This document shows, in pieces, positions 356-57,238 of a stretch of DNA of 64,000 nt (position 1 is its first letter; every line of letters starts with the position of its first letter). A program made the translations under genes and the position numbers. Source of the DNA: an uncultured Syntrophales bacterium (lineage in GTDB: Bacteria > Desulfobacterota > Syntrophia > Syntrophales > JADFWA01); the NCBI GenBank assembly GCA_964454305.1, contig CAYVXX010000001.1, positions 65,464-129,463 on the forward strand, given 5' to 3'. A model generated the notes under the pieces. The model did no database searches. It saw nothing but the letters and a program-made list of their open reading frames with translations, and was not told the origin of the DNA.

Positions 356-455
356 TTGAAAATTATTAATATCACTTGATTTTTCTTTTTTTTCAAATTA
401 TATATCGTACGGAAACAAACAGAGTGGGGCTTGCGGGTACACTCCCAATCAAAAG
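356..455. repeat. Intergenic repeat, copy 1: a ~65-nt AT-rich unit followed by the GGGGCTTGCGGGTRC-CTCCC-TCAAAA motif
   Basis: 356-420 (ttgaaaattattaatatcacttgatttttc...ttcaaattatatatcgtacggaaa) closely matches 4771-4847. 424-455 (gtggggcttgcgggtacactcccaatcaaaag) matches 57449-57480 and 60273-60304. Confidence 0.6.
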
Positions 456-539: not shown

Positions 540-567
540 TTGACTTCTATATTTAAGTATGTAATTT
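540..567 (+). promoter_or_regulatory. Candidate sigma70-type promoter (TTGACT-N16-TAATTT) for the leader transcript
   Basis: TTGACT at 540-545 and TAATTT at 562-567. It faces the leader ORF and the UbiD-type operon. Motif match only. Confidence 0.35.
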
Positions 568-605
568 CCTACACAATAAGAAAAGCGAAAGGGCTATTTT
601 ATTAC

Positions 606-674
606 ATGATACGTTTTGATATTGAAAACAGAAACTTCTGGTGGTGGCAGGCCCACATAGGTCTGCCCATGTAA
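606..674 (+). CDS. Candidate 22-aa leader peptide MIRFDIENRNFWWWQAHIGLPM with three consecutive Trp codons
   Basis: Own translation. TGG TGG TGG lies at 639-647 and the stop at 672-674. A weak Shine-Dalgarno-like GAAAGGG sits 12 nt upstream. The ORF is followed by alternative hairpins and two intrinsic terminators. It is too short for the ORF track. Confidence 0.5.
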   Translation: MIRFDIENRNFWWWQAHIGLPM

Positions 675-704
675 GCTTAACAATAACATAACTACGATTT
701 TAAG

Positions 705-740
705 CCATGGGTGAAGAAAGGTCTTTCCCACGGTTTTTTT
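705..740 (+). terminator. Intrinsic terminator 1 (segments 3:4 of the attenuator)
   Basis: CCATGGG (705-711) pairs with CCCACGG (727-733) with one mismatch, followed by T7 (734-740). Confidence 0.6.
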
Positions 741-755
741 GTGGATACACAGTAA

Positions 756-787
756 CCGTCATGGGAAGTCCCCATGGCGGTTTTTTT
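756..787 (+). terminator. Intrinsic terminator 2 (segments 5:6)
   Basis: A 10-bp stem, CCGTCATGGG (756-765) with CCCATGGCGG (771-780), a 5-nt loop, then T7 (781-787). Confidence 0.8.
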
Positions 788-830
788 ATTTTTGCAGCTT
801 TTTAACATTGGCATCAGCAGGATAAATACC

Positions 831-1358
831 ATGACTTTCAAGAATTCAGACATGCATCAACGAGGTGAGTTCCATGTCAAGACAACGGAAGGTTCTTACG
901 ATATTGAGGCTCACGTGAGATTGATCGGGAAGGATCTTTTAGTCGCCATAAGTGGCGGAGAAAAACCGCACATCGGGGCTGTTTCCGTTGCTCAGCCCCG
1001 TCAGAGCCTCAAAAATCCCGAAGACACAAGCGCTACGGCGTCTGTCATCTGCATTATGGGACACAAGGAAGACGAACTGGCAAAAAAAGCTTCAGAATTT
1101 TTAGCGGCGGCTTTGAATACCCGGGTTGTGGTCACGGCCGGCATACACTTCGATGCCATCAACGAAGAAGGAATCCGAAGAGTCATTCAAAACAGTGAAC
1201 TCATTGTCAAGCAAATCCTGGCTAAAATCATAACGGAATCAAATTCACAAATGGAAAAAAAGAATAGAGGGGAAAGCCATGTCGAAACGAATTGTTATCG
1301 GGATAACAGGAGCAAGCGGCGTGATATACGGTGTAAAGACGCTTCAATTACTCGCTGA
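831..1358 (+). CDS. Small UbiD-partner protein (LpdD-like, putative prenylated-flavin chaperone/accessory subunit)
   Basis: ORF 774..1358. Its first 19 codons overlap terminator 2, so ATG 831 is preferred. The motif GGEKPHIGAVSVA and the position directly upstream of ubiX/ubiD resemble the LpdD-type partner (recalled, not searched). The 3' end overlaps ubiX by 80 nt. Confidence 0.5.
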   Translation: MTFKNSDMHQRGEFHVKTTEGSYDIEAHVRLIGKDLLVAISGGEKPHIGAVSVAQPRQSLKNPEDTSATASVICIMGHKEDELAKKASEFLAAALNTRVVVTAGIHFDAINEEGIRRVIQNSELIVKQILAKIITESNSQMEKKNRGESHVETNCYRDNRSKRRDIRCKDASITR

Positions 1359-1884
1359 AAAAGAATTTGAAACTCATTTAATCATATCCGAGACGGGAAA
1401 ACAAAACATCGAGATTGAAACACCATATAAAGCGCGAGATGTGGAGGCTATGGCTAACTACACTTACGACATAGATGACGTTGGCGCATCTCTCGCGAGC
1501 GGTTCGTTCTTAACGGAGGGTATGATAATCGCACCATGTACCATAAAAACCCTGTCAGGAATTGCCAATTCATATACGAGCAACCTCCTCGTGCGGGCCG
1601 CGGATGTCACTCTGAAAGAAAAGCGAAAACTTGTTCTGGTGGTAAGAGAAACGCCGCTCCACAAGGGACATATCAGACTTATGGGCATGGCTGCCGACTA
1701 CGGCGCCCATATTCTCCCTCCTGTACCCTCTTTTTATCATCAACCGAAAACTATTGACGATATTATAAATCAGACAATCGGCAAGATTTTTGATTACCTT
1801 GGCATCAAACATGATCTTTTCACGCGGTGGGGTGAAAAGCATATCGAACCGGTGGAGCTCGATAACATTCGATGCCTTGATTGA
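1279..1884 (+). CDS. ubiX: Flavin prenyltransferase UbiX
   Basis: MSKRIVIGITGASGVIYGVKTLQLL...APCTIKTLSGIANSYTSNLLVRAADVTLKEKRKLVLVVRETPL is the typical UbiX/Pad1 flavoprotein pattern. The RBS GAGGGG lies upstream. Confidence 0.9.
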   Translation: MSKRIVIGITGASGVIYGVKTLQLLAEKEFETHLIISETGKQNIEIETPYKARDVEAMANYTYDIDDVGASLASGSFLTEGMIIAPCTIKTLSGIANSYTSNLLVRAADVTLKEKRKLVLVVRETPLHKGHIRLMGMAADYGAHILPPVPSFYHQPKTIDDIINQTIGKIFDYLGIKHDLFTRWGEKHIEPVELDNIRCLD

Positions 1885-2007: not shown

Positions 2008-3447
2008 GTGAAAAAGAAACAATATTTTACTGCATTGAGTATCATTATCTTTTTGATACTGCTGTTCTGCCCGGTTCAGTCGAAAGCAAAAATGTTCAAC
2101 GACCTTGATGAATTTGTCAGTTTCTTGAAGCAGAAAGGTGAATTAGTCACCGTAACGAAGGCGGTCAACTCAAAATTTGAAGCTGCAGCCGTCCAATCGA
2201 AAGTCCTCAATGAAATGGATAAGGCCGTTCTATTTAGCAACGTGGACGGGCAGGGGAAGAGGATGCTCGGCAATATTTACACATCACGGAAAATGCTGAG
2301 CTACATGTTTGACACAAAACCCGAAAAGCTGGTTGACAAAGTTCTTTCTTACAAGGGAGCGAAGAGATACCCTGTCAAATTCGTTGAAAAGGCGTCATGT
2401 CAGGAAGTAGTCAATAAGGATTTCAAGGACATTTTAGACGTAGTTCCAATTCCATGGAATTATGAAAAGGACGCGAATCGTTACATAACCGCCGGCATAG
2501 TCGTCACGAAAGACCCCGAAACGGGAAAGATAAATACGGCGATTCAGCGAATCATGTATAAAAAAGGGCGGCAGTTAAATCTCTTTTTCGCTCCGATGCA
2601 GCATAACTGGATGATATTTAACAAATACAAGGCATTAAAAAAAGATATGCCCGTGGCTGTTATCATAGGCGCGGATCCGATTATGATGTTCGCTTCAGAG
2701 TCGGGGATTCCATACGAAGAGAATGAGTTCGAGTATGCCGGCGCAATGAGGGGGAAATCGATAGAAGTTGTTAAATGCAAGACGGTCGATCGTTATGTCC
2801 CGGCTAACGCGGAATATATTATTGAAGGAACTGTCCCCTGGGACAAAAAATCGATGGAAGGGCCCATGGGAGAAAATCAGCGGGTCTACGGATATGCTCA
2901 GGAAAATCCCATTATAGAAGTTTCTTGTATTACTCATAAAAAAAATCCGATCTTCCAGAATATACTGCCCGGCACTTCCGAAGAGCATTCACTGCTGGCA
3001 ATACCGATGGAAGCCAGAATGCTTGAAAGATTGAGGCAGGTATCCCCACGCGTTATTACCTTAAACTTACTTCCTAATTTCATGAATTGCGTAATCAAGC
3101 TTGACTACTATCCTCCGGTTCAACGAGGCCTGGGCAAAAATGTGCTTCTGGCCGCCCTATCCGATCCATGGATAAAATATGCCGTCGTTGTCAACAAAGA
3201 TGTAAATATCGATGATGCAGATGAGGTTAACTGGGCAATCTCCGCCAGGGCCAACCTTTCAAAAGATCTTGTGCTCATTGAGAAAACATGGGGGTTCGTC
3301 ATGGATCCAAGCAGAAAAGACCGCACCCAGCCCGTAACGAAACTGGGTATCGATACAACAGTTGACCCGCTCGAAAGAGAAAGGTTTATAAAGGCGGATG
3401 TTTTAGGGTATGATAAGGTTAATCTAAAAGACTATTTATCCAGATAG
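2008..3447 (+). CDS. UbiD-family (de)carboxylase with an N-terminal hydrophobic extension
   Basis: UbiD-like features are present: FVSFLKQKGELVTV, ITAGIVVTKDPETGKINTAIQRIMY, IIGADP, EGPMGE. A GTG start at 2008 has a strong RBS (GGAAAGGAG, 7-nt spacer). The canonical UbiD N-terminus begins at Met29 (ATG 2092), which lacks an RBS. Confidence 0.85.
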   Translation: MKKKQYFTALSIIIFLILLFCPVQSKAKMFNDLDEFVSFLKQKGELVTVTKAVNSKFEAAAVQSKVLNEMDKAVLFSNVDGQGKRMLGNIYTSRKMLSYMFDTKPEKLVDKVLSYKGAKRYPVKFVEKASCQEVVNKDFKDILDVVPIPWNYEKDANRYITAGIVVTKDPETGKINTAIQRIMYKKGRQLNLFFAPMQHNWMIFNKYKALKKDMPVAVIIGADPIMMFASESGIPYEENEFEYAGAMRGKSIEVVKCKTVDRYVPANAEYIIEGTVPWDKKSMEGPMGENQRVYGYAQENPIIEVSCITHKKNPIFQNILPGTSEEHSLLAIPMEARMLERLRQVSPRVITLNLLPNFMNCVIKLDYYPPVQRGLGKNVLLAALSDPWIKYAVVVNKDVNIDDADEVNWAISARANLSKDLVLIEKTWGFVMDPSRKDRTQPVTKLGIDTTVDPLERERFIKADVLGYDKVNLKDYLSR

Positions 3448-3588: not shown

Positions 3589-4737
3589 TTGCCAATGGGA
3601 AACATTCTAATATATTGCGCAAAATTTCTCATTACGTCGTACACAAGTATTTTAGCACCCTTACTGCCCCTTTTAATGACGGAAATGCACCTTTCCCTCA
3701 CCCAGACAGGCGCGCTGGTTTCCGTATTCTCTCTCTTTAACTCTCTCCTGCAGCCCCTTTTCGGCTGGACACAGGATCGAATCGGATTTTACTTCTTTCT
3801 CTGTTTCGCTCCACTCTGGACCGGCATATTCATGGGAGCAATCGGAATAGCCTCCAGTTACGGATTCCTTATCCTGTTTCTGTTGCTTGCCGGGCTCGGG
3901 ATCTGTGCCTTCCACCCTGCTTCATTTGCTTCAATGGGGAAAATCGATCCCGAACGCAGAGCAATTACAATTTCGTTCCTTCTGATGGCGACTTCTCTCG
4001 GTTTCGTCGTAGGGCCGATGGCGATCTCCTTTTTCGTTACCTTTTTTGGAATACATAAGCTCTATCTCATTGCGATACCGGGGATACTTATAACGCTGGC
4101 CCTTTTCAAAACCGTTGAGCACAGTAAAAACAGACCACCGGCAGGCACACATAACGGTTTTTATCAAATTAAAGCAATTACAATCTCGATATTCCCCCTC
4201 TTCGCATTTGCTCTCTGCATAAGCATTACCCTTATGAATTTATTCAGCTTCATACCGTTTCTTCTACGGGAAAGAGGCGCCGCAATGACTATTGTCGGGT
4301 TCTTTCTTTCGGCCTTAGCCCTCGGTTCCGCTATTGGTCCTCTTCTGGGATCACTGATGGTAAAACACATCGGAAGGGTTAAAGTCCTCGTTATATCGGC
4401 AATCTCTTCACTCGGTTTTCTTTTATTATTTCTTCTGCCGGCAATCGGGCCTATCCTGCAGATTATTTTCCTTTCTTTCCTGGGACTTGCCCTCATGTTG
4501 CCATTTTCGATTCTCATAGACATGGGGCAGGAAAGGGTTCCTCAATACCTAAGCACGGTCTCCTCACTGCTCGGAGGATTCGCTTGGGGCAGCGGGGGTA
4601 TACTGATCATCGTCTTCGCTAAAATTGCCGAAACCGTAGGGTTTGAAAATATAATAAGAGGTCTGATTGTATTCCCTGTCATCAGTTTGTTACTGGTGTA
4701 TTTTACCGACCTGCGTTATTCCGGAAAGCCAAACTGA
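3589..4737 (+). CDS. MFS transporter
   Basis: A 382-aa polytopic protein with about 12 hydrophobic segments. The start is TTG 3589 or ATG 3595. It is the last gene of the UbiD-type operon. Confidence 0.8.
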   Translation: MPMGNILIYCAKFLITSYTSILAPLLPLLMTEMHLSLTQTGALVSVFSLFNSLLQPLFGWTQDRIGFYFFLCFAPLWTGIFMGAIGIASSYGFLILFLLLAGLGICAFHPASFASMGKIDPERRAITISFLLMATSLGFVVGPMAISFFVTFFGIHKLYLIAIPGILITLALFKTVEHSKNRPPAGTHNGFYQIKAITISIFPLFAFALCISITLMNLFSFIPFLLRERGAAMTIVGFFLSALALGSAIGPLLGSLMVKHIGRVKVLVISAISSLGFLLLFLLPAIGPILQIIFLSFLGLALMLPFSILIDMGQERVPQYLSTVSSLLGGFAWGSGGILIIVFAKIAETVGFENIIRGLIVFPVISLLLVYFTDLRYSGKPN

Positions 4738-4770: not shown

Positions 4771-4847
4771 TTGCAAATTATTGAATATCACTCGATTTTT
4801 CTTATCTTTCAAATTATATATTTTACGGAAAAGCAACAAAGGGGGGG
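4771..4847. repeat. Intergenic repeat, copy 2 of the AT-rich unit seen at 356-420
   Basis: ttgcaaattattgaatatcactcgatttttcttatctttcaaattatatattttacggaaaagcaacaaaggggggg aligns with 356-430 with few mismatches. Confidence 0.6.
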
Positions 4848-5248: not shown

Positions 5249-5512
5249 ATGGCAAACCTTGCTACAACGAAAATGTCGTCAAAAGGGCAAGTGGTTATCC
5301 CTGAGGGAATTCGCAAGCGTCTTAAATTAAAAACGGGGACTCAATTTGTTGTTGTTGGTGACAATGATGTCGTTATTCTTAAAAATATTACTCCTCCCTC
5401 AATTGAGGAGTTCGACGAATTAATTGCAAAAGCCCGCAAAACTGGCAAACAAACAAGACTGAAAAAAAACGATATAAAAGAAGCCATTAGTAAAGTTAGA
5501 AGGATTAAATGA
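5249..5512 (+). CDS. AbrB/MazE/SpoVT-family antitoxin
   Basis: MSSKGQVVIPEGIRKRLKLKTGTQFVVV is a swapped-hairpin AbrB motif. There is a 4-nt ATGA overlap with the downstream PIN gene. Confidence 0.8.
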   Translation: MANLATTKMSSKGQVVIPEGIRKRLKLKTGTQFVVVGDNDVVILKNITPPSIEEFDELIAKARKTGKQTRLKKNDIKEAISKVRRIK

Positions 5513-5913
5513 AAATTGTCCTTGATACCAATGTCTTTATCTCCGGTATATTTTTTAGTGGACCACCCTCAAAAATTCTTCAAGCATGGAAAGACTCAAA
5601 AGTTCAAATCATTCTCTCCGAAGAAATACTTGAAGAGTATCAACGTGTTGCGGAAGAATTATCATCTAAATTTTCTGCGGTTCATATTGATCGAATAATC
5701 GAACTGCTCACAATTTATGGGGAAGTCTTTGAAACAAAAGATATTTCTGTATCTGTTTGTAAAGATCCTGATGACAATAAATTTATAGAGTGTGCAATTG
5801 CAGGTAACAGCAAGTTAATAGTCAGCGGAGATAAGCACCTATTAAATGTCACCGGTTATCAGGGTATTTCGGTTTTGAAGCCCAGGGATTTCATAGATAA
5901 CCACTTGAAATGA
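5509..5913 (+). CDS. PIN-domain toxin (VapC-like, PIN_3 type)
   Basis: MKIVLDTNVFISG...DPDDNKFIECAIAGNSKLIVSGDKHLL carries the acidic PIN residues and has the typical toxin-antitoxin arrangement. Confidence 0.8.
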   Translation: MKIVLDTNVFISGIFFSGPPSKILQAWKDSKVQIILSEEILEEYQRVAEELSSKFSAVHIDRIIELLTIYGEVFETKDISVSVCKDPDDNKFIECAIAGNSKLIVSGDKHLLNVTGYQGISVLKPRDFIDNHLK

Positions 5914-7548: not shown

Positions 7549-8625
7549 ATGAAACCGACAGGAAAACAGTTCATAGCAGAATTTATCAACTGCTCGGCCG
7601 ATATTCTAAATGATCAACAGACCATTGAACGGATTTTAAGTGAAGGGATTGTGAAATGCGGGATGAATCTCGTCAGCATAAACAGTCATAGCTTTAATCC
7701 GATAGGCGTTACATCTATCGCGATTGTCTCCGAATCTCACATTGCCATTCATACGTATCCCGAAGCCCGTCATGCCTCACTTGATATCTTTACCTGCTCT
7801 GATGAATCCCAACTGTCCATTGATCTGCTGGATTTCCTGAAAGATGAGCTTGACCCGGATACGGTGAGGGTCGCTGAAATGAAGAGAGGAAATCCTCTCG
7901 AAATAATACACACCGACTGGATAACAGATTTTTGCGAGTCCATAGGATTTGAAGTCCGGTACCATGTTGAAGAAAAAATCCTCGACACACGGTCAGAATA
8001 TCAGCAAATCAATGTCATAAAGAATGAGACCTTCGGCAGGATGATGTTTCTCGATGGAGAGCTGCAGATCGCGGCCGCTGATGCCCATATCTATAATCAA
8101 AGCATGGTTTCCCCCCTGATTGAGGCCGGTAACAGTTTAAACAATGTGGCAATCCTTGGTGGCGGAGACGGTGGAGTCCTTTACGAGCTGCTGAAACACA
8201 ATCCCGGGAGAGTTACGCTCATCGACATCGACAAAGAAGTGATAAATATCGCCAGGAAATATCTGAAAGATATATGTTTCGATGCCTTTGATGATCCAAG
8301 TGTTACGATCATAAACGATGATGCAAATACTTTTCTCGACGAGAAACACGACTTCGATGCCATTGTCTACGATTTAACGATGCATCCCGAATCATTCATC
8401 AATGTAGATAGAGAAATATATCTGGATGGAATTTTCTCAAAGATTAAAGATAATCTTAAAATGGGTGGTGTGCTAAGCGTACAGTGCTGTTCCCAATTTG
8501 ACGCGACAACGCTCGGCATTATAACCGTAATTTTAAATAAACATTTTTCCGACGTTACATTTAAAAAATCGTATATTCCATCTTTTTGCGTGAGTTGGGT
8601 ATTCGCATCCGCTAAAAGAAAGTAA
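7549..8625 (+). CDS. Fusion protein: S-adenosylmethionine decarboxylase (SpeD/SpeH type) + aminopropyltransferase (SpeE)
   Basis: The N-terminal part has VTSIAIVSESHIAIHTYPE, the pyruvoyl AdoMetDC ES cleavage motif. The C-terminal part has YQQINVIKNETFGRMMFLDGELQ...ILGGGDGGVLYELLKH...LIDIDKEV, the spermidine synthase fold. Confidence 0.85.
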   Translation: MKPTGKQFIAEFINCSADILNDQQTIERILSEGIVKCGMNLVSINSHSFNPIGVTSIAIVSESHIAIHTYPEARHASLDIFTCSDESQLSIDLLDFLKDELDPDTVRVAEMKRGNPLEIIHTDWITDFCESIGFEVRYHVEEKILDTRSEYQQINVIKNETFGRMMFLDGELQIAAADAHIYNQSMVSPLIEAGNSLNNVAILGGGDGGVLYELLKHNPGRVTLIDIDKEVINIARKYLKDICFDAFDDPSVTIINDDANTFLDEKHDFDAIVYDLTMHPESFINVDREIYLDGIFSKIKDNLKMGGVLSVQCCSQFDATTLGIITVILNKHFSDVTFKKSYIPSFCVSWVFASAKRK

Positions 8626-15731: not shown

Positions 15732-15829
15732 GAGCTAAAAATAGCATAGCCAGTTCTCTTCCATCTAAGAAAGTTGGAAGACTGGTGAAAATTAAAGATT
15801 TGCGTAAAAAACAAAGAAGGGAGGAAATC

Positions 15830-17083
15830 ATGAAACAAATTGAAAATGTTTTAGAATTAAGCAATGCACCTGATTCAAAAGACTATGATAACGTCTTTTT
15901 TATTCAGGTGGACGAGAACAAGTGCCAACAATGCGGTGTATGCGAAACTCACTGCGCGACAGGGGCAATTCAACCAAGGGATGGAAAGGACGGCCCCCGG
16001 ACGGTGGTGGATCCCGCGGCATGCATGAACTGCGCTCAGTGTCTCATCAACTGTCCATACGGGGCAATTTATGAGGGTGTTTCATTTGTAGATGAGATTT
16101 TCAAGGCCCTTAAAGATCCGGATACGATCGTTGTCTCCATGCCCGCGCCTGCTGTTCGTTACGGCCTTGGCGAGCCGTTCGGCTATCCTACGGGGACCTA
16201 TGTGGGGGGGAAATTGTTTGCGGCGCTCCGAAAGCTTGGTTTCGATCGCATCTGGGACAACCAGATGACCGCCGATGTTACCATTATGGAAGAAGGAACC
16301 GAGCTTGTCGGCAGACTTACCGGCAAGATCAAGAAACCCCTTCCGCAATTTACCTCCTGCTGCCCAGGATGGATCAAATTTATGGAGACGTTTTATCCCG
16401 AGCTGTCTCCCCACCTGTCCACATGCAAGTCACCCATCGCTATGCTGGGACCTCTCTCAAAGACGTACGGCGCCGAGGTTTCAGAGACACCGGCAAAAAA
16501 TATGTATACGGTTTCCATTATGCCCTGCGTGGCCAAAAAGTATGAGGGGCTGAGGCCTGAGATGGCTGACAGCGGCTTCAGAGATATTGATGCCACCATA
16601 ACAACCCGGGAGCTTGCCTATATGATCAAGAAGGCCGGCATCGATTTTAAAAGCCTTCCCGACGAGAAACCGGATTTTGAACTGGGAGAATCCACAGGCG
16701 CCAGCACCATCTTCAGCAACAGCGGCGGCGTCATGGAGGCAGCCCTTCGTCTTGCCTACGAGGTCGTATCCGGTAAAAAACTAAAAGATCCTGATATTAA
16801 AGCTGTTCGAACCCATAAAGGCGTCAAAGCAGCCAAGATAAATATTCCCAAATTCGGTGATCTGAGTGTCTGTGTAGTAAGCGGACTTGGCAACACGATA
16901 CCCATTCTTGAGGATATCAAAAAAGGGAAGTGTAAATACCACTTTATCGAGGTTATGGCATGCACTGGCGGTTGTATCAATGGCGGCGGGCAGCCTCTTT
17001 TCCCCGATGCGCGCGAGGCCTCTTTGTTCAGAACAATAATTGCAACAATGAATAGAAGATTTAACATGAGAAGAGTGGCTTAA
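15830..17083 (+). CDS. hydA: Periplasmic [FeFe]-hydrogenase large subunit
   Basis: Two ferredoxin-type Cys clusters are present, along with H-cluster motifs TSCCPGW, MPCVAKKYE and ACTGGCINGGGQP. It is collinear with the Desulfovibrio-type HydA as I recall it. ATG 15830 has the RBS GGGAGG; GTG 15785 is less likely. Confidence 0.9.
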   Translation: MKQIENVLELSNAPDSKDYDNVFFIQVDENKCQQCGVCETHCATGAIQPRDGKDGPRTVVDPAACMNCAQCLINCPYGAIYEGVSFVDEIFKALKDPDTIVVSMPAPAVRYGLGEPFGYPTGTYVGGKLFAALRKLGFDRIWDNQMTADVTIMEEGTELVGRLTGKIKKPLPQFTSCCPGWIKFMETFYPELSPHLSTCKSPIAMLGPLSKTYGAEVSETPAKNMYTVSIMPCVAKKYEGLRPEMADSGFRDIDATITTRELAYMIKKAGIDFKSLPDEKPDFELGESTGASTIFSNSGGVMEAALRLAYEVVSGKKLKDPDIKAVRTHKGVKAAKINIPKFGDLSVCVVSGLGNTIPILEDIKKGKCKYHFIEVMACTGGCINGGGQPLFPDAREASLFRTIIATMNRRFNMRRVA

Positions 17084-17096
17084 CAGGAGGAGTGAC

Positions 17097-17426
17097 ATGA
17101 AAGATATTGCTAAAATGACGAGACGTCAATTCGTCAAAATTTCCGGAATTACTGTTGGGGCAGTATTGTATAGTTGGAATTTCGCTAAATTTACTTATGC
17201 GGCAGTAAAAGACTATCTTACTGAAAGGCAGACATCCGTCTATGTGCATGACACAAAAATGAAATTCAGGAAGTCCCAGGACAGTCCGGCGGTTCACAAG
17301 ATTTACAAGGATTTTCTTCATGAACCTTGTTCTCATATGTCGCACCGGCTCCTGCACACCCATTACATTGACCGTTCCGGCAGGGTAAAAAGGCTTAAGG
17401 AAGGTGGTCTCAAACTCAAAGTGTAA
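17097..17426 (+). CDS. hydB: [FeFe]-hydrogenase small subunit with twin-arginine signal
   Basis: MTRRQFVKISGITVGAV is a Tat motif, and the gene lies directly after hydA. Confidence 0.85.
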   Translation: MKDIAKMTRRQFVKISGITVGAVLYSWNFAKFTYAAVKDYLTERQTSVYVHDTKMKFRKSQDSPAVHKIYKDFLHEPCSHMSHRLLHTHYIDRSGRVKRLKEGGLKLKV

Positions 17427-17493
17427 AATATTTTAATCTGTAAGGCAGCCTGCGGTGAGGATTTCATCTGAACCCAAGGGCGGGGAGAAAATA

Positions 17494-17531
17494 AAAAACC
17501 CAGCCCTTTTAACTCAGGCTGGGTTTTTTAT
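17494..17531 (+). terminator. Intrinsic terminator after hydB
   Basis: AAAAACCCAGCC / GGCTGGGTTTTT stem followed by a T-run. Confidence 0.8.
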
Positions 17532-17543
17532 TTGGAAGGAAAA

Positions 17544-17801
17544 ATGGAAAAAAAACGGGTAGGTATTGTTGGAATTATTATTCATAACAGGAAGGATCGC
17601 GCCCCGAAGGTAAATGATATACTCACTCAATATGGTGATATCATTGTGGGAAGGATGGGCATTCCCTACCATGAACGGGGATATAATGTAATCACGCTTA
17701 TTGTAGATGGGACGACCAACGAGATAGGAGCGATGACGGGAAAGCTCGGTATGATTGAAGGGGTTACAGTCAAATCAGCGATGGCAAAAGAAAATGAATA
17801 A
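17544..17801 (+). CDS. TM1266-family putative iron-only hydrogenase system regulator
   Basis: KRVGIVGIIIHNRKDRAPKVNDILTQYGDIIVGRMGIPYHERGYNVITLIVDGTTNEIGAMTGKLGMIEGVTVKS matches the recalled family pattern, and the gene sits in a hyd maturation context. Confidence 0.7.
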   Translation: MEKKRVGIVGIIIHNRKDRAPKVNDILTQYGDIIVGRMGIPYHERGYNVITLIVDGTTNEIGAMTGKLGMIEGVTVKSAMAKENE

Positions 17802-19173
17802 CCTGCGTCTGGAACACGATTTTCTCGGGGAGATGAAGCTCCCGGGTGATGTTTACTGGGGCATACATACACAAAGGGCTCTTTGCAACTTCCAGATTAG
17901 CGGTTACATGGTAAATCCATCACTGACTAAGGCGATGGCGATGGTAAAAAAGGCATGCTGCATGACCAACTTTGAGTTGGAATACCTGCATGAGAAAAAG
18001 GCAAAGGCGATAATCGCCGCCTGTGATGAGATTGTTGATGGCAGGTTTTTGAACCAGTTTCCCCTGGATGCCCTCCAGGGCGGGGCGGGCACGTCAACAA
18101 ACATGAATGTAAATGAGGTTGTCGCCAACAGAGCAATAGAAATTCTGGGCGGAGAAAAGGGAGATTATTCTCTCGTCCATCCCCTCGAAGACGTAAATCT
18201 TCACCAGTCAACGAACGACACGTACCCGACAGCGATAAAGATAGCCTGCATAAACTCTTTGAGAAATCTTAGCCAAAAGATTACCGATCTGCAGGGTGCC
18301 TTTCAGGAAAAGGAAAAGGCCTTTGGAAAAACGATCAAGCTCGGAAGGACGGAACTTCAAGAGGCCGTTCCCATCACTCTGGGGGCGGAGTTTTCCGCAT
18401 TTGCCGAGGCCGTTTCCAGAGACAGATGGAGGACATTCAAGTGCGAAGAGAGGTTGCGGGTGATTAATCTAGGCGGAACAGCGGTAGGAACCGGGCTTAC
18501 CGCTCCACGTAACTATATCTTTCTGGTTATAGAAAAACTGCGGGATATTACCGGTCTGGGTCTCTCCCGGGGAAAAAACGTAATGGGGGAAACAGCCAAT
18601 GCCGATTCCTTCGTCGAGGTTTCCGGTATCCTGAAGGCACATGCTGCAAACCTGATAAAGATATGTAATGATTTGAGGTTGCTGAATCTTTTGGGTGAGA
18701 TAAAACTACCTGAGCTCCAGGCGGGCTCATCCATCATGCCCGGAAAGGTCAACCCTGTCATGTTGGAAGCGGCAATGCAGGCGGGGATAAAGGTAACTGC
18801 CAATGATCACGTAGTAACGGATGTAGTGAGCAGGGGAACGCTGCAGATAAACGAATTTCTTCCCCTCCTTGCCCACGCGATTTTAGAGTCTCTGGATATA
18901 CTTATAAACATAAATGATCTTTTAGCAGGACATGTAAAAAAAATAGGTGCTGACGAAGAAAAATGCAGGGAATACTTTGACAAAAGTCCTATGATTATCA
19001 CAGCGCTTTTACCGGTTATCGGTTATGAAAAGGCGACAGAGTTGATCAGCGAGTTTCTTCCAACCAATCAAAAAGATATGAGAAGGTTTCTGGAAAATAA
19101 ACTGGGGAAAGAATTGGTTAAAAAGACATTTTCTCCAGACAGAATAACAGCCCTCGGATATAGTAAATTATGA
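17794..19173 (+). CDS. Aspartate ammonia-lyase/class II fumarase family protein (hyd-cluster associated)
   Basis: LRLEHDFLGEMKLPGDVYWGIHTQRA...GAGTSTNMNVNEV...GSSIMPGKVNP is the signature sequence. Start at ATG 17794. Confidence 0.85.
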   Translation: MNNLRLEHDFLGEMKLPGDVYWGIHTQRALCNFQISGYMVNPSLTKAMAMVKKACCMTNFELEYLHEKKAKAIIAACDEIVDGRFLNQFPLDALQGGAGTSTNMNVNEVVANRAIEILGGEKGDYSLVHPLEDVNLHQSTNDTYPTAIKIACINSLRNLSQKITDLQGAFQEKEKAFGKTIKLGRTELQEAVPITLGAEFSAFAEAVSRDRWRTFKCEERLRVINLGGTAVGTGLTAPRNYIFLVIEKLRDITGLGLSRGKNVMGETANADSFVEVSGILKAHAANLIKICNDLRLLNLLGEIKLPELQAGSSIMPGKVNPVMLEAAMQAGIKVTANDHVVTDVVSRGTLQINEFLPLLAHAILESLDILININDLLAGHVKKIGADEEKCREYFDKSPMIITALLPVIGYEKATELISEFLPTNQKDMRRFLENKLGKELVKKTFSPDRITALGYSKL

Positions 19174-20453
19174 ATGAGACACCAAAAGGGAATAGATTGC
19201 AAATTGCCCTCTTCGGCAGGACAAATGTGGGAAAATCGAGCCTGCTCAATCTTATCATGGGACAGGATATAGCCATCACATCGCCCATCGCGGGAACAAC
19301 CACCGATATTGTGGAAAAGGCGATGGAGCTCCTCCCCCTGGGGCCGGTACTTTTTATCGATACGGGAGGCCTGGATGACGTATCCATCCTTTCAACCCTG
19401 AGACTGAAGAAGACTCATAACATCTTTGACAGGGCGGATGTCGTCCTGCTCGTTACGGAACCTGATATATGGACAGATTTTGAAGAGGAAGTACTGCGCG
19501 AAACAGAGAAGAGAAAAACTCCCACAGTCGTTGTGATAAACAAGATAGATATAAGAAACCCGGCACCTGAATTTGTAACACGGATTTCAGAAAAGACCGA
19601 ACGTATGGTTCTCGCATCCAGCGTAGATTGGGGGAAAAGAGATGACTATCTCGAGCCCCTGAAGAGGCACCTGATTGAAATCTGCCCGGATGATTTCATC
19701 CAGCCACCGCCGATAATCGGAGACCTTCTCACTCCGGGAGGACTGGCCGTTCTCGTCGTTCCCATAGACCTTGAGGCACCAAAGGGGAGACTCATACTGC
19801 CCCAGGTTCAGACGATAAGGGACGCGCTGGATAGCGACGCGGCGGCACTGATTGTCAAGGAAAGAGAACTATCCTATACATTGAGCACCTTAAACAGGCC
19901 ACCCGACATCGTCGTCTGCGATTCCCAGGTTGTCCTGAAGATGTGTGCTGACACGCCGAAAGATGTTTCAGCCACCACATTTTCTATCCTTTTTGCAAGA
20001 TACAAAGGGGACCTGGTAGAAGCGGCAAGGGGCGCCGCCTTCATAGAAAGCTTAAAACCAGGCGACAAGGTATTGATAGCGGAGGCATGTTCCCATCATC
20101 CTGTCCAAGACGATATTGGAAGAGTAAAGATACCAAGATGGCTGCGGCAGTATGTGGGAGCTGACCTGGATATTGATGTTTGCGCCGGAAGAGACTATCC
20201 GGAAAACCTGAGAGAATACTGCCTTATTATTCACTGCGGGGCATGCATGCTGACCAGAAGAGAGATGTTGGGCAGGATTCAAAAGGCGTGTGAGGCAAAC
20301 GTGCCAGTCACAAATTATGGAGTAGCCATCTCCCATCTCCAAGGGGTGTTGAAAAGAACACTGACTCCCTTCCCCGCGGCACTGGTTGCCTTTGACAAGA
20401 AAATGAAAGAAATCAAGGAGGATTTAAAAAATGAACGTAGGATCAACTCTTAA
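19170..20453 (+). CDS. hydF: [FeFe]-hydrogenase maturation GTPase HydF
   Basis: The GTPase P-loop is FGRTNVGKSSLLN. C-terminal Cys residues are present (CSHH...HCGAC). There is an ATGA overlap with the upstream gene. Confidence 0.85.
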   Translation: MNETPKGNRLQIALFGRTNVGKSSLLNLIMGQDIAITSPIAGTTTDIVEKAMELLPLGPVLFIDTGGLDDVSILSTLRLKKTHNIFDRADVVLLVTEPDIWTDFEEEVLRETEKRKTPTVVVINKIDIRNPAPEFVTRISEKTERMVLASSVDWGKRDDYLEPLKRHLIEICPDDFIQPPPIIGDLLTPGGLAVLVVPIDLEAPKGRLILPQVQTIRDALDSDAAALIVKERELSYTLSTLNRPPDIVVCDSQVVLKMCADTPKDVSATTFSILFARYKGDLVEAARGAAFIESLKPGDKVLIAEACSHHPVQDDIGRVKIPRWLRQYVGADLDIDVCAGRDYPENLREYCLIIHCGACMLTRREMLGRIQKACEANVPVTNYGVAISHLQGVLKRTLTPFPAALVAFDKKMKEIKEDLKNERRINS

Positions 20454-21924
20454 CAAATTAGAGTTAAACTGGGCAAAAAGTGTTATCGAAGAGGATGAAA
20501 TAACAAGGTACATGATCAACGGAAAAGACTTTATATCCGACGATAAAATATGGGGGGAAATTGCAAGTAATAAAAATCCCGAATCTCAAAAAGTAAGAGA
20601 GATCCTTCAAAAATCCCTTTCCATAGAAACACTCAGACCGGATGAAACCGCAGCGCTACTGAATGTGCAAGATGAAGAGTTATGGAATGAAATGTTTGAG
20701 GTGGCAGGTGAGGTGAAGAGAAAGGTTTATGATAACCGTATCGTAACATTTGCGCCTCTCTACTTTGGCAATCTTTGCGTTAACGATTGTCTCTACTGCG
20801 CTTTCAGGAAAGACAATCTAAAGGAAGTGAGAAATCGATTATCTCTGAATCAGATACGAGAGGAAACAAAGGCGATGATTTCCATGGGCCATAAGCGTCT
20901 TATGCTGGATTGTGGAGAACATCCCAGCATGGATGCCGATTACATTGCCGATGTGCTCCGTACTATCTACGAAACAAAAATTGGAAGGGGTGAAATAAGA
21001 AGAATTAATATAAATGTTGCCTCTATGAGCATTGAAAAGCTCAGGATGCTAAACGAAGTGGGCATAGGGACATATCAGGTATTTCAGGAGACATACCACC
21101 ATAAAACCTATAGGGATGTTCATCCCAACCCCGAAGGACCAAAATCAAATTATGGGTGGAGACTCTATTCTCTGCATAGGGCAATGGATGCAGGCATAGA
21201 TGATGTGGGCATAGGCGTGCTCTTCGGTCTGTATGACTGGAGATTCGAGGTTATGGGTTTGTTGTACCATGCCTTGAATTTAGAAGAGCAATTTGGGGTA
21301 GGGCCTCATACTATTTCAATTCCAAGACTACAGCCGGCAGAGAACACGCCCTTTATAAGCTCAACCGATTATAGGGTTTGTGATGATGACTTTAAAAAAC
21401 TGGTCACTATAATAAGGCTTTCAGTTCCATACACGGGTCTTATTCTAACGGCAAGGGAAAGCGCGCAGCTACGCCGTGAGGTTATCCCGCTGGGGGTTAC
21501 TCAAGCGGATGCAGGTACAAGAATCGGTATTGGTACCTATAGCGAGAGGTATGATAAGCAGGAGGCAAAAAGGCAGCAGTTTCTTCTGGGTGATCCAAGA
21601 AGCCTGGATGAGTTCATAAAAGAGCTTGCCGAGATGGGGTATATTACATCTTTCTGCACAGCGGGCTACAGATGCGGGAGGACTGGCGAACTTATTATGA
21701 AGCTCCTGAAATGCGGACAGGAGGGTCGTTTCTGCAAGCTCAACGCGGTGCTCACCTTCAGGGAATGGCTGGATGATTTTGCCAGTGAGGAGACAAAGAA
21801 GACGGGCGAAAAAGTAATAGAAAAAGAGATGGATGAAATCAAAGAACAAATGCCTTCTATATACCCGAAATTGATGGAATACTGCGAGAGGATTGAAAAT
21901 GGTGAAAGGGATCTCTATTTCTAA
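20431..21924 (+). CDS. hydG: [FeFe]-hydrogenase maturase HydG (radical SAM tyrosine lyase)
   Basis: The CVNDCLYCAF radical-SAM motif and a C-terminal Cys-rich domain (CTAGYRCGRTG). Confidence 0.85.
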   Translation: MNVGSTLNKLELNWAKSVIEEDEITRYMINGKDFISDDKIWGEIASNKNPESQKVREILQKSLSIETLRPDETAALLNVQDEELWNEMFEVAGEVKRKVYDNRIVTFAPLYFGNLCVNDCLYCAFRKDNLKEVRNRLSLNQIREETKAMISMGHKRLMLDCGEHPSMDADYIADVLRTIYETKIGRGEIRRININVASMSIEKLRMLNEVGIGTYQVFQETYHHKTYRDVHPNPEGPKSNYGWRLYSLHRAMDAGIDDVGIGVLFGLYDWRFEVMGLLYHALNLEEQFGVGPHTISIPRLQPAENTPFISSTDYRVCDDDFKKLVTIIRLSVPYTGLILTARESAQLRREVIPLGVTQADAGTRIGIGTYSERYDKQEAKRQQFLLGDPRSLDEFIKELAEMGYITSFCTAGYRCGRTGELIMKLLKCGQEGRFCKLNAVLTFREWLDDFASEETKKTGEKVIEKEMDEIKEQMPSIYPKLMEYCERIENGERDLYF

Positions 21925-22195
21925 GGAAACCCTGACAGAAAAATTTGCCTGCATAGCAGACCTTGTTAAGGAAAAATATGGTGTTAATATATGGTTTGCC
22001 AAGATATTAGGGGAAAGGTGGTCATATATTGCAGGACAGAGAGAAGTGGAAATTTCCCTTCTTCCCTCGGAGCGCACCCGGCTGAATAAACGATTCGGCA
22101 TTGTTTCGTATAGATGGGAGGAAATCCCCGCCAATGAAAGAGAAGCGCTTCTATCACCACTGAAAGAGCAAATAAAGATATATGAACAGGGATGA
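21893..22195 (+). CDS. Hypothetical 100-aa protein translationally coupled between hydG and hydE
   Basis: The ORF overlaps the hydG end by 32 nt and the hydE start by 14 nt, with ordinary amino-acid composition. No motif recognised. Confidence 0.45.
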   Translation: MKMVKGISISKETLTEKFACIADLVKEKYGVNIWFAKILGERWSYIAGQREVEISLLPSERTRLNKRFGIVSYRWEEIPANEREALLSPLKEQIKIYEQG

Positions 22196-23195
22196 AATCT
22201 TATACTATTTGAAAACCTCAGGCACAGATGAAGAACTGTTTCAGAAGGCTGATGAAGTAAGAAAAAAACATTGCGGTGATGAAGTACACATCCGGGGCAT
22301 CATCGAATTTTCCAGCTATTGCTGCCGTAACTGTCTTTATTGCGGACTTCGAAAAGACAACAACAATCTGAACAGATACCGAATGGATGAGGAAGAAATA
22401 ATAGGCCTTGCGCTACAGATCACGTCATTCGGCATCAAAACCATTGTCCTTCAATCGGGTGATGATTTTTATTTCACCCAATCCATGCTCTGCCGGATCA
22501 TAGAGCGCATAAAAGAACATGCTGATGTTGCAATTACCCTGAGTGTTGGGGAGAGACCATTTGAGGACTACAGGGCGTTTAAACTATCTGGAGCAGACCG
22601 CTACCTGCTCAAGCATGAAACAGCCAGTGAAGAGCTGTACAAAAAGTTTCACCCCTACCAGTACCTTAAACACAGGATACGCACTCTGGAATATTTACGG
22701 GAAACAGGATACCAGATTGGAACCGGAAACATTGTAGGACTTCCAGGTCAAAGCATAAATGATCTTTATGCGGATATCCTGCTGCTGAAGGAACTGGATA
22801 CGGATATGTTGTCCATCGGTCTTTTTATTCCTCAGCACGATACGCCTTTGTCACAGGTTCCGCAAGGAGATTTATCATTAGCGTTGAGAGTTCTTGCACT
22901 GGCACGAATCGTGACCAGAGACTCTCATATGCCCGTGACTACGGCAATTGCAACCGCCGATCCTGAAAGGGGGCTTTTCCGTGGATTAAAGACAGGAGTA
23001 AATGTCATTATGCCCGATTTCACGCCTGACCGTCACAGAAAAGATTACACAATCTACGACAACAAGGCACACATAACATTAGAAAAAGCTAAAGAAACAA
23101 TCCTGAAGGCAAAGAGGGTTATTTCATCTCACAAAGGTGATTCTCTCAAATACTCACCAATAAAATTTTCAAAGTCTGTAGGATCAAGAAAATAG
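22182..23195 (+). CDS. hydE: [FeFe]-hydrogenase maturase HydE (radical SAM)
   Basis: CCRNCLYCGLRKDN radical-SAM motif, BioB-like fold, 337 aa. Confidence 0.85.
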   Translation: MNRDEILYYLKTSGTDEELFQKADEVRKKHCGDEVHIRGIIEFSSYCCRNCLYCGLRKDNNNLNRYRMDEEEIIGLALQITSFGIKTIVLQSGDDFYFTQSMLCRIIERIKEHADVAITLSVGERPFEDYRAFKLSGADRYLLKHETASEELYKKFHPYQYLKHRIRTLEYLRETGYQIGTGNIVGLPGQSINDLYADILLLKELDTDMLSIGLFIPQHDTPLSQVPQGDLSLALRVLALARIVTRDSHMPVTTAIATADPERGLFRGLKTGVNVIMPDFTPDRHRKDYTIYDNKAHITLEKAKETILKAKRVISSHKGDSLKYSPIKFSKSVGSRK

Positions 23196-47593: not shown

Positions 47594-48796
47594 TTATATA
47601 TCCAGCAGGTGTCCCATCCGCTCCTTTTTCGTCGTAAGATAACGGACGTTATTCTCGCTGGGCTTGATTTCTATAGGAACCCTCTCGATAATCTTAACAC
47701 CGTAACCCTGAAGCCCGACAATCTTTTTGGGATTATTCGTTATCAATCTCATCTTTTTCACACCCAGGTCAACGAGTATCTGGGCGCCTATCCCGTAATC
47801 CCTCAGATCTTCTTTAAATCCGAGTTCGATATTTGCCTCAACCGTATCTCTCCCCAGTTCCTGTAAATGATAGGCCCTTATCTTATTTGCCAGACCAATG
47901 CCTCTTCCTTCCTGATGCATGTATATAATGATCCCCTTGCCCTCTTTTTCCACCATCTTCATGGCAGCATGTAGCTGATCACCGCAGTCACATCTCTCTG
48001 AACCGAAGACATCACCCGTCAGGCACTCAGAATGAACCCTCACCAGCACCTCATCCTCATGTCTAATGTCACCCTTAACCAGAGCAACATGCTTCAAGCT
48101 GTCAACATCATTTTCATAAACTATTACATTAAACTCGCCTCCATAGCTGGTTGGAAGAACAGCAGTTGCAATTCTTCTAACAAGAGATTCGTTTTGTAAC
48201 CTGAAGTTGATTAAATCAGCAATCGTTACTATTTTTAATCCGTGTTTTTTCGCAAATATCTCCAGATCAGGCATCCTCGCCATGGTACCATCTTCATTCA
48301 TAACCTCACAGATGACACCAGAAGGTTTCAGTCCAGAGAGCCGCGCGAGGTCAACAGAACCCTCAGTCTGTCCGGTTCTCACGAGAACGCCCCCTGTCTT
48401 GGCACGGAGAGGAAATACATGTCCCGGACTTACGATGTCATCCGGACTGGCATCATCAGCGACGGCTGTCAGTATCGTGGTTGCTCTATCGGCTGCAGAG
48501 ATCCCCGTGGTAACACCCTGCCTGGCTTCGATAGAAACTGTGAACGCCGTCTGGAAACGGGATCTGTTGTCCTGCACCATCAAGGGAAGTTTCAGCTTGT
48601 CGGCGCTTTCGTTATCAAGCGAGAGGCATATTAATCCCCTGCCATACTTTGCCATAAAGTTAACCGCCTCTGGAGTAATATGCTCCGAGGCTATACATAG
48701 ATCACCCTCGTTCTCCCTATCTTCATCATCCACCAGGATAACCATCTTACCATCTTTAATATCTTCAATGGCTTCTTCAATCGTACTAACACTCAT
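47594..48796 (-). CDS. ribBA: Bifunctional 3,4-dihydroxy-2-butanone-4-phosphate synthase / GTP cyclohydrolase II
   Basis: DDEDRENEGDL (RibB) and VHSECLTGDVFGSERCDCG (RibA). Start at ATG 48796, directly after the ribE stop. Confidence 0.95.
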   Translation of the reverse strand: MSVSTIEEAIEDIKDGKMVILVDDEDRENEGDLCIASEHITPEAVNFMAKYGRGLICLSLDNESADKLKLPLMVQDNRSRFQTAFTVSIEARQGVTTGISAADRATTILTAVADDASPDDIVSPGHVFPLRAKTGGVLVRTGQTEGSVDLARLSGLKPSGVICEVMNEDGTMARMPDLEIFAKKHGLKIVTIADLINFRLQNESLVRRIATAVLPTSYGGEFNVIVYENDVDSLKHVALVKGDIRHEDEVLVRVHSECLTGDVFGSERCDCGDQLHAAMKMVEKEGKGIIIYMHQEGRGIGLANKIRAYHLQELGRDTVEANIELGFKEDLRDYGIGAQILVDLGVKKMRLITNNPKKIVGLQGYGVKIIERVPIEIKPSENNVRYLTTKKERMGHLLDI

Positions 48797-48797
48797 A

Positions 48798-49445
48798 TTA
48801 CCCTTTCTCCTCCTGTACAAAGCCGTGTTCGGCTAAAAATGCCATATCAATTCCCTTATCACGGCGCAACAGTTTTTCCACATATTTTCCCAATATATCC
48901 GTCTCTATATTTACCGGATTAGCGACGTTTTTGAATCCCAGCGTTGTAACGCGGGCGGTATGGGGGACTATATTAACATAAAATCTGTTCTTTTCACACC
49001 TGTTTACCGTAAGGCTGATACCATCAACGGTTATAGACCCTTTCTCCACCATATACTTGCTAAATGCTGAATCTATCTCAACGCCGAATATTATGGAGTT
49101 TGATTTTACGACCTTTTCACAGATTTTTCCGACACAGTCAACATGTCCCAAGACGATATGCCCTCCTAGAAAATCATTCACTTTTAAGGACTTTTCCAGG
49201 TTTACCCTGTCTCCCCTTTTTAACATCCTCAGAGTTGTTTTTGACAGCGTTTCCGCTGAAACATCAACGGTAAAACTATCACCGGTTTTGACAGTCACCG
49301 TAAGACACACTCCGCTCACCGAAATACTGCCTCCAATCGCCACATCATCAAGGCTCATGGAGGTATCTATCTCCAGAAGGGCATCCTCTCCCTTCTTCGA
49401 CATCCTCCTGACATTTCCCATTTCTTCTATGATACCGGTGAACAT
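48798..49445 (-). CDS. ribE: Riboflavin synthase alpha chain
   Basis: MFTGIIEEMG...SVSGVCLTV, repeated as VDGISLTV. Confidence 0.95.
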   Translation of the reverse strand: MFTGIIEEMGNVRRMSKKGEDALLEIDTSMSLDDVAIGGSISVSGVCLTVTVKTGDSFTVDVSAETLSKTTLRMLKRGDRVNLEKSLKVNDFLGGHIVLGHVDCVGKICEKVVKSNSIIFGVEIDSAFSKYMVEKGSITVDGISLTVNRCEKNRFYVNIVPHTARVTTLGFKNVANPVNIETDILGKYVEKLLRRDKGIDMAFLAEHGFVQEEKG

Positions 49446-57088: not shown

Positions 57089-57162
57089 TGGGGGATCGTC
57101 TATCGGTATGACTCGGGTCTCTCGAATCTGCTACTCGGGTTCGAATCTCGGTACCCCAGCCA
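57089..57162 (+). tRNA. Atypical tRNA-like gene: Gln-type body (UGGGG...ACCCCAGCCA) but anticodon loop CU-CUC-GA
   Basis: A hand-folded cloverleaf. The acceptor is TGGGGGA/TACCCCA with a G6-A67 mismatch. The D arm is GTC-N9-GAC. The anticodon stem is CGGGT/ATCTG (two G-U pairs) and the T arm is TCGGG-TTCGAAT-CTCGG (two G-U pairs). The anticodon-arm sequence resembles a copy of the T arm. Confidence 0.5.
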
Positions 57163-57163
57163 T

Positions 57164-57238
57164 GGTCCCATCGTCTAGGGGTTAGGACGCTGGCCTCTCA
57201 CGCCGGAAACAGGGGTTCAATTCCCCTTGGGACTACCA
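57164..57238 (+). tRNA. tRNA-Glu (anticodon CUC)
   Basis: GGTCCCATCGTCTAGGGGTTAGGACGCTGGCCTCTCACGCCGGAAACAGGGGTTCAATTCCCCTTGGGACTACCA is collinear with the canonical bacterial tRNA-Glu. The anticodon loop is CT-CTC-AC. Confidence 0.85.

Follow-up and report, generated by a model that had tools for sequence, protein, structure and literature searches.

A probable tryptophan attenuator with two tandem terminators ahead of a UbiD-family decarboxylase operon in an uncultured Syntrophales bacterium

We have analysed a 64-kb stretch of DNA from an uncultured Syntrophales bacterium (contig CAYVXX010000001.1), which we call the window; all coordinates are window positions counted along the plus strand. 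Between polA and an operon for an LpdD-like chaperone, UbiX, a UbiD-family decarboxylase and a major facilitator superfamily (MFS) transporter lies a leader that is probably a ribosome-mediated tryptophan attenuator. It would read the supply of charged tRNA-Trp through a short open reading frame (sORF) with three consecutive Trp codons, and pass the signal on as a relay over two tandem intrinsic terminators. This is the reading of a first-pass annotation, which saw a Trp-codon leader peptide, a relay of six segments and a pair of terminators; conservation, RNA folds and the lack of a match to any rival Rfam family support it. The mechanism is a textbook one with an unprecedented cargo, and the two-terminator relay differs from known leaders. 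The elements of the leader are these:

540 to 567, plus strand: sigma-70-like promoter, TTGACT (540-545), 16-nt spacer, TAATTT (562-567), with a T-tract on its 5' side, from sequence and conservation
587 to 593, plus strand: GAAAGGG, a purine-rich tract resembling a Shine-Dalgarno sequence (relatives have GAGGGAG and GAGAGAG), with the ATG 12 nt away, from the alignment
606 to 674, plus strand: leader ORF of 22 codons, MIRFDIENRNFWWWQAHIGLPM and stop, with ATG at 606 and TAA at 672-674
639 to 647, plus strand: TGG TGG TGG, three tandem Trp codons, invariant across three lineages
646 to 667, plus strand: hairpin 1:2 (646-653/660-667), 8 bp, -13.8 kcal/mol, perhaps also a pause hairpin
665 to 680, plus strand: segment 2, the 5' arm of antiterminator 1 (665-671 and 675-680, stop codon bulged out), invariant, from constrained folds
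700 to 713, plus strand: segment 3, common to antiterminator 1 and the 5' arm of terminator 1, from alignment and folds
702 to 740, plus strand: terminator 1 (T1), stem 702-717/722-736, U7 at 734-740, -13.4 kcal/mol in the window
727 to 735, plus strand: segment 4, the 3' arm of T1, also complementary to the 5' arm of terminator 2, from alignment and folds
754 to 793, plus strand: terminator 2 (T2), stem 754-765/771-782 and then T7 A T5, -20.0 kcal/mol

The conservation argument uses three lineages that fill four distinct alignment rows: the window with L081, L082, and L083-85 with L133. Between lineages about 20% of third codon positions are different. The relatives were found through a protein search with LpdD. 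L081 and L127-L132 belong to the same species as the window. In L082 the LpdD protein is 88% identical to that of the window and the polA neighbourhood is the same. In L083-85 and L133 LpdD is 86% identical and the upstream neighbour is a gene other than polA; homology between the window and L083-85 starts at about 534, just 5' of the -35 box, and continues through the leader into the operon. Alignment of these relatives shows the three Trp codons, the sORF and both sets of pairings conserved in all three lineages.

The promoter that had been pointed out at 540-567 is present, and identity to the window within 535-575 is 93% in L082 and 89% in L083. Its -10 hexamer matches the consensus at 3 of 6 positions and a consensus scanner made no promoter call at 540-567, so the support for this promoter is its conservation. 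The 22-codon ORF with its three TGG codons also stands as it was described. Its ATG, frame, WWW and TAA are kept in L082, in L083-85 and in L133, and the replacements found in L083 (F4S, I6V, N10Y, F11S) all lie 5' of the WWW. Variable residues before the WWW, together with a fixed start, frame, Trp run and stop, are the pattern of a leader peptide in which the regulatory codons alone matter. Identity of the sORF to the window is 99% in L082 and 91% in L083; the same figures for the 5' untranslated region are 76% and 73%, and third codon positions of LpdD and UbiX are at 77-83%. The 44 nt at 639-682, which hold the WWW, hairpin 1:2, the stop and GCUUAA, carry 1 substitution per lineage where about 9 are expected, which under the third-position rate has P=4.5e-4 and 9e-4 in the two comparisons.

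The bare motif TGGTGGTGG is not by itself significant, since it is seen once on both strands of the 64 kb against 0.26 expected and 24 of 100 shuffles hold at least one. What is specific to the leader is its arrangement: it is the sole WW-containing short ORF in the window, on either strand, with a terminator behind it. A 44-residue extended version of the ORF gave no match as a protein-search query.

The predicted fold of 575-800 (-69.4 kcal/mol, z=-3.8 relative to shuffles) contains three hairpins, and RNAalifold returns the same 1:2, T1 and T2 without being supplied a structure. Over the 35 pairs of this termination set 97% of the alignment cells are standard-paired. Hairpin 1:2 has the 8 bp that were claimed for it and is paired in every cell, with 653/660 changing from C-G to U-G. 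T2 proves longer than the 10 bp first given: it is a perfect 12-bp stem over 754-782 with 7 G-C pairs and a 5-nt loop, and its U7 is present. Across the three lineages its pair 759/777 reads U-G, U-A and C-G. No terminator-like site in the first 20 kb is stronger, and the others there occur at chance frequency.

The claim about the middle hairpin, 3:4, holds in part. It is a real terminator and its U7 is there, but it is not a clean 7-bp stem, because the window has an A707.C731 mismatch; the helix is extended by 702-706/732-736 and 713-717/722-726. A simple terminator scanner overlooked T1, which was found by a separate scan. At the imperfect pair 707/731 the window has A.C, L082 has G-C and L083 has G-U, and 95% of the T1 cells are paired. 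The stretch from the leader ORF to LpdD thus holds two intrinsic terminators, T1 and T2. The distance from T2 to the LpdD ATG is 40 nt, and a scanner found no promoter-like site in it. With no second promoter before LpdD, and the sole conserved promoter lying 5' of the leader, transcripts of the operon must cross both T1 and T2.

The competing pairings are also present. Pairing 2:3 is longer than was first described, since a second helix at 675-680/700-705 adds to 665-671/706-712; in the constrained fold the two make 13 bp at -13.1 kcal/mol. Pairs 664/713 and 670/707 alternate between U-G and U-A among lineages and all of their cells are paired. Pairing 4:5 has the bulged register that was proposed (727-729/763-765 with 730-735/754-759) as well as a contiguous one (727-734/758-765) with one C.A mismatch, at 731/761, which is C.A in the window and U-A in L083. 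For the read-through set of 16 pairs (664-671/706-713 and 727-734/758-765) 95% of cells are standard-paired; when the 3' partners are slid by 1-3 columns as controls, pairing falls to 30-58%. The sole two-sided change is at 730/762, where A-U becomes G-C in L082 and 4:5 is preserved. Only 4:5 explains this change, because the same substitutions make the T1 pair 708/730 a U-G and break the T2 pair 762/774 to C.A.

The strength of the competing duplexes is itself unusual. The duplex of 655-699 with the 5' arm of T1, which contains 2:3, has -16.1 kcal/mol; 11 of 2000 shuffles do as well, and so do 1.3% of genomic 45-mers. For 4:5, where the 3' arm of T1 meets the 5' arm of T2, the energy is -9.5 kcal/mol, which 2 of 2000 shuffles match. 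The palindrome CCCAUGGG recurs in variant form in each of the five downstream segments, and it is this shared palindrome that makes each segment able to pair with either of its neighbours.

The position of the ribosome selects between the two sets of pairings in silico. Segment 1 overlaps the last Trp codon, the stop codon adjoins segment 2, and the U-tract of T1 lies 95 nt downstream of the first UGG. In the constrained folds the ribosome was given a footprint from 18 nt before to 12 nt after the A-site. A footprint on the W codons hides segment 1 and leaves 660-680 free. With the ribosome so placed and the window transcript extended to the T1 U-tract, the minimum free energy (MFE) structure is predicted to be antiterminator 2:3, with T1 cut to an apical stub; with the ribosome at the stop codon, or with none, T1 forms. 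When the transcript ends after segment 3 and the ribosome is on the W codons, 2:3 is the MFE structure in all three lineages (-13.1, -15.3 and -14.0 kcal/mol). These folds bear out the trp-attenuator geometry that had been proposed, in which a stall at WWW frees segment 2 and segment 2 takes segment 3.

The model that we favor would work as follows. We infer that transcription starts about 30 nt 5' of the 22-codon ORF and that the ORF is translated. When Trp is plentiful the ribosome would reach the UAA at 672-674 and mask segment 2; without translation hairpin 1:2 would form instead. In both of these cases segment 3 would pair with segment 4 to make T1, and any polymerase that escaped would meet T2. 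When Trp-tRNA is scarce the ribosome would stall at UGG UGG UGG (639-647) and cover segment 1, the freed segment 2 (665-680) would capture segment 3 (700-712) as it emerged, and T1 would be prevented. Segment 4 (727-735), now free, could pair with the 5' arm of T2 (754/758-765). This 4:5 pairing would delay the T2 hairpin so that the polymerase passes into LpdD-UbiX-UbiD-MFS.

A number of observations weigh against this model, and they concern the energetics, the leader and the genes it would control. T1 of L082 and L083 (-19.8 and -18.6 kcal/mol) is stabler than their 2:3 pairings (-15.3 and -14.0), so that the terminator wins at equilibrium, and T2 at -20 kcal/mol is far stabler than 4:5. 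Since the terminators are stabler than the antiterminators, read-through must be kinetic, and bypass of T2 would be purely a matter of timing. Escape from T2 is the weakest step of the model. The lineages available as independent comparisons are three only. In the column-shuffle control the read-through set gives 138 of 500, which is not significant, and a large part of the pairing shows no variation. With four distinct rows and a non-significant column shuffle the covariation is suggestive and does not amount to statistical proof. The near-invariance of 639-682 may come from RNA structure alone. The Shine-Dalgarno-like tract is weak, and its spacing to the ATG is longer than at the genes of the operon.

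Within the species there is also an allele that disrupts the sORF. Two of the 8 same-species sequences, L127 and L132, which come from two assemblies, have a CG insertion after codon 3; L127 (1274-1330, corresponding to window 606-660) and L132 read ATGATACGCGTTTTG... where the others read ATGATACGTTTTG... In this allele WWW becomes GGG and the ORF ends at a TAG at 657-659. A ribosome ending there would cover segment 2, and the operon is predicted to be locked off. It could be a recent loss-of-expression variant, or the frame could matter less than we think; the deeper lineages keep the frame.

The cargo is a further difficulty. None of the regulated genes LpdD, UbiX, UbiD and MFS has a known tryptophan connection. 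In the orthologous operons of L120, L123 and L124/125, whose UbiD proteins are 75-77% identical, the upstream region holds neither a Trp leader nor a terminator. At 80 more distant genome loci, mostly from Desulfobacterales, where the LpdD homologue is 40-74% identical, blastn shows no similarity to the leader and there is no WW sORF; the gene order at these loci is different, with UPF0261 and AMP-binding genes upstream. As close UbiD orthologues are leaderless, the Trp link is a recent feature of one narrow clade.

Other readings of the same leader deserve to be considered. The two terminators could be set by a protein, a small molecule or a trans-acting RNA binding somewhere in 639-713, with the WWW sORF untranslated or irrelevant. 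The most conserved stretch, 639-682, is the core of the RNA structure, and because it is a coding and a structural core at once the two constraints are inseparable; the weak Shine-Dalgarno tract and the frameshifted allele in the same species fit this reading as well. We nevertheless think it rather improbable. No Rfam family matches, no TRAP-type repeated triplets are present, and since 575-638 is A/U-rich, without structure and little conserved, a single hairpin is all that is left to serve as an aptamer. It would also take a large coincidence for WWW, the rarest tripeptide, to fall precisely at the point where a stalled ribosome would free segment 2, and for the stop codon to fall precisely where a terminating one would cover it. 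We are still more reluctant to see here an independent small gene, either for a small RNA of about 165-215 nt or for a 22-residue peptide, with its own promoter and terminators, for which control of the operon would not be the main role. Such a gene would be expected to have a conserved promoter and, behind it, strong terminators, as are seen here, and RNAs and peptides derived from attenuators can act in trans, rnTrpL and peTrpL for example (PMC6614838, PMC7298713). This reading leaves transcription of the operon unexplained, as the operon has no promoter of its own between T2 and the LpdD ATG, and the leader always accompanies the operon, even in the different context of L083-85. A functional peptide is also made less likely by the lack of conservation ahead of the WWW. 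An independent function is in any case compatible with the attenuator as something extra, since the terminated leader could act in trans, and it is not an alternative to it.

Least probable, in our opinion, is a ribosome-stalling attenuator that answers to another signal: free tryptophan sensed through the nascent peptide, as in TnaC, or a translation-inhibiting antibiotic, as in the erm, bmrCD and mef leaders, with the MFS protein as an exporter. There is an MFS transporter in the operon, and antibiotic-responsive ribosome-mediated attenuators are known ahead of transporters (PMC4191407, PMC4335068). Such leaders need no run of one rare codon, and the first three genes here are a decarboxylase and its cofactor machinery and not a resistance function. 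The TnaC signature is W12-x3-D16-x7-P24-stop, and TnaC acts through Rho and not through intrinsic terminators. Our peptide ends in ...WWWQAHIGLPM and the stop, with no Asp after the Trp residues and a stop after Met, and intrinsic terminators follow it.

Searches against known RNA families offer no competitor to the tryptophan attenuator. At the gathering threshold Rfam finds tRNAs only in the whole window. On 200-1000 there is no match at E<=10 to Trp_leader (RF00513) or to the T-box leader; the sole leader match there is Phe_leader (18 bits, E=3.2), and it lies on the other strand. We rejected a match at 710-792 to the Rfam trpB motif, RF04312 (28.4 bits against a gathering score of 59, E=0.1). 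It has half the gathering score, lacks the interior of P1 (28 nt reduced to 4 nt), falls in the wrong phylum and covers merely the two terminators, so we regard it as a chance architectural resemblance: the trpB motif likewise has a hairpin in a 5' untranslated region and then an intrinsic terminator. That motif is a candidate riboswitch or attenuator of Firmicutes and Fusobacteria (PMC11109978).

It is useful to set the proposed attenuator beside the systems it resembles. Nearly all known leader-peptide attenuators are from Proteobacteria and Actinobacteria, and the genes under their control are for aminoacyl-tRNA synthetases or for the biosynthesis of amino acids. Trp attenuators with double or triple UGG repeats precede trp operons and trpS (Streptomyces) in these two groups (PMC1262725). 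The leader has much in common with the E. coli trpL type: a short ORF with two or three tandem UGG codons near its 3' end, a stop adjoining segment 2, a 1:2 hairpin, a 2:3 antiterminator, a G+C-rich terminator with its U-tract, and an antiterminator weaker than the terminator, which implies kinetic action. It differs from that type in its two tandem terminators, its cargo of a prenylated flavin mononucleotide (prenyl-FMN) decarboxylase and a transporter, its uncultured host and the absence of a match to the Trp_leader model. Leader peptides with WWW are established for the trp attenuators of S. meliloti (peTrpL) and A. tumefaciens (MNIVSKNIANWWWSSFLRP) (PMC7298713). The rhizobial peptides and ours, 14-22 residues long, have in common exactly three consecutive Trp at residues 10-14 and an unconserved remainder. 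Beyond the WWW there is no similarity, and the rhizobial leaders control trpE(G) and release an RNA and a peptide with functions in trans.

The enterobacterial his leader has six segments, in which A:B, C:D and E:F compete with B:C and D:E, and only its last hairpin is a terminator. Our leader is likewise a six-segment relay in which a stalled ribosome would shift the register of all downstream pairing. The difference is that here the middle hairpin, 3:4, also has a U7, so that the relay would control two terminators, and that the codons are for Trp and not His. One stalled ribosome resetting two successive terminators would be a natural design for tight off-states.

The genes around the leader and the repeats that enclose them are these:

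258, minus strand: N-terminus of polA, upstream and divergent, reading away from the operon
356 to 431, plus strand: left copy of a 76-nt imperfect direct repeat, from a repeat search (blastn 84% identity, E=3e-17)
831 to 1358, plus strand: LpdD-like prenylated-flavin chaperone, first gene of the operon (Pfam PF21758, E=1.8e-37)
1279 to 1884, plus strand: UbiX flavin prenyltransferase (NCBIfam NF004685, 257 bits)
2008 to 3447, plus strand: UbiD-family decarboxylase, HmfF-like cluster (TIGR00148, 307 bits)
3589 to 4737, plus strand: MFS_1 transporter of unassigned specificity (Pfam PF07690, E=1.7e-33)
4771 to 4846, plus strand: right copy of the 76-nt direct repeat, from the same repeat search

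UbiD, UbiX and LpdD domains are encoded together, which identifies a prenyl-FMN decarboxylase system. For the transporter the matches to NCBIfam subfamilies are weak. Against solved structures the UbiD protein scores 240 bits with HmfF (6h6v), 163 with BsdC (7ae4), 146 with UbiD, 135 with AnInD (7p9q) and 105 with HudA. It is thus like the HmfF, AnInD and HudA systems in being a UbiD of the HmfF-like cluster encoded with UbiX and LpdD, with moderate similarity to HmfF and lower similarity to AnInD and HudA. AnInD itself belongs to the HmfF cluster (PMC8988006), which makes a heteroaromatic acid a plausible substrate for the window UbiD.

The first-pass annotation went further and offered, as a speculative rationale, the salvage of an indole precursor, such as indole-3-carboxylate, under Trp limitation. 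The placement of the UbiD protein does not bear this out: the nearest characterised relative is HmfF and not AnInD, and nothing points specifically to indole-3-carboxylate. The orthologous operons are leaderless, and a look for trp genes across the 64-kb window found none, so the salvage rationale is still speculation. The operon proteins show no depletion of Trp; UbiD has 6, as its orthologues do. One may still imagine an orphan HmfF-like decarboxylase and its MFS transporter within a Trp-starvation regulon, where a heteroaromatic carboxylate (an indole carboxylate, for example) is imported and decarboxylated to a precursor such as indole for tryptophan synthase. We think this unlikely, though if true it would be a new salvage route, and this UbiD clade would gain its first assigned function by way of its regulator and on a small repeat-flanked cassette. 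If the switch responds to Trp, an uncharacterised UbiD clade would be wanted at Trp shortage and the candidate substrates would be narrowed to a testable handful; if the decarboxylase feeds tryptophan synthesis, the interest of the finding rises. In the literature we found no report of a UbiD system under leader-peptide attenuation, nor of the HmfF/AnInD/HudA family under amino-acid attenuation. A scan of metagenome contigs for TGGTGGTGG-N18-CCCATGTAA gave 34 matches, none of them homologous, and an exact look-up of the window UbiX gave no match.

The leader and its operon appear to travel together. The 76-nt repeat has just two copies in the 64 kb, with starts 4416 nt apart, and the pair encloses the promoter, the leader and all four genes; L082 retains the 3' half of the left copy only. 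The repeats that bracket the unit, taken with its other genomic context in L083-85, suggest that leader and operon were inserted and moved as one piece. The repeats look like the footprint of an insertion or a mobile cassette. A repeat-flanked unit in differing contexts shows how a sensing leader and its operon can travel together.

Within the operon, the window LpdD has a 1-nt deletion at about 1253, just before the ancestral stop, relative to L082 and L083. The deletion gives it a 30-residue extension (175 against 145 residues) that overlaps the start of UbiX by 80 nt. Among the leaderless relatives, L124 (535-7225) and L125 have the order LpdD-UbiX-UbiD-MFS with a UbiD at 75% identity, followed by an unannotated gene of 459 residues and a second UbiD paralogue. 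Most Desulfobacterales relatives (for example L023 at 118-2988, and L001, L004 and L007) do not have LpdD as the first gene; it follows a gene of the UPF0261 family, and an AMP-binding (CoA ligase-like) or HD-domain gene is often present near it. That LpdD is not first in those clusters indicates that the chaperone is used there in a different, conserved gene context. The polA copy in L127 has the Pfam 5'-3' exonuclease and DNA_pol_A domains.

The rest of the window is an ordinary anaerobe chromosome, with leuS, gltX, glyA, rib genes, tpiA and an [FeFe]-hydrogenase with its maturases. About 400 nt past the right repeat copy, at 5249-5913, is a pair made up of an AbrB/MazE-type antitoxin and a PIN-domain toxin. 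At 7549-8625 one ORF encodes both an S-adenosylmethionine decarboxylase domain (residues 9-114) and, behind it, a spermidine synthase domain (124-352); its product is apparently a fused polyamine-synthesis protein. The hydrogenase region, 15785-23195, begins with the large subunit and continues with the HydF GTPase and two radical-SAM genes (HydE/HydG-like); a gene for an aspartase/fumarase-type lyase lies between. The riboflavin genes ribBA and riboflavin synthase are at 47594-49445, and no FMN riboswitch reaches the Rfam gathering score in the window. Two tRNA-Glu(CTC) genes stand 1 nt apart at 57089-57238, the first with an Rfam score of 36 bits and the second with 61.

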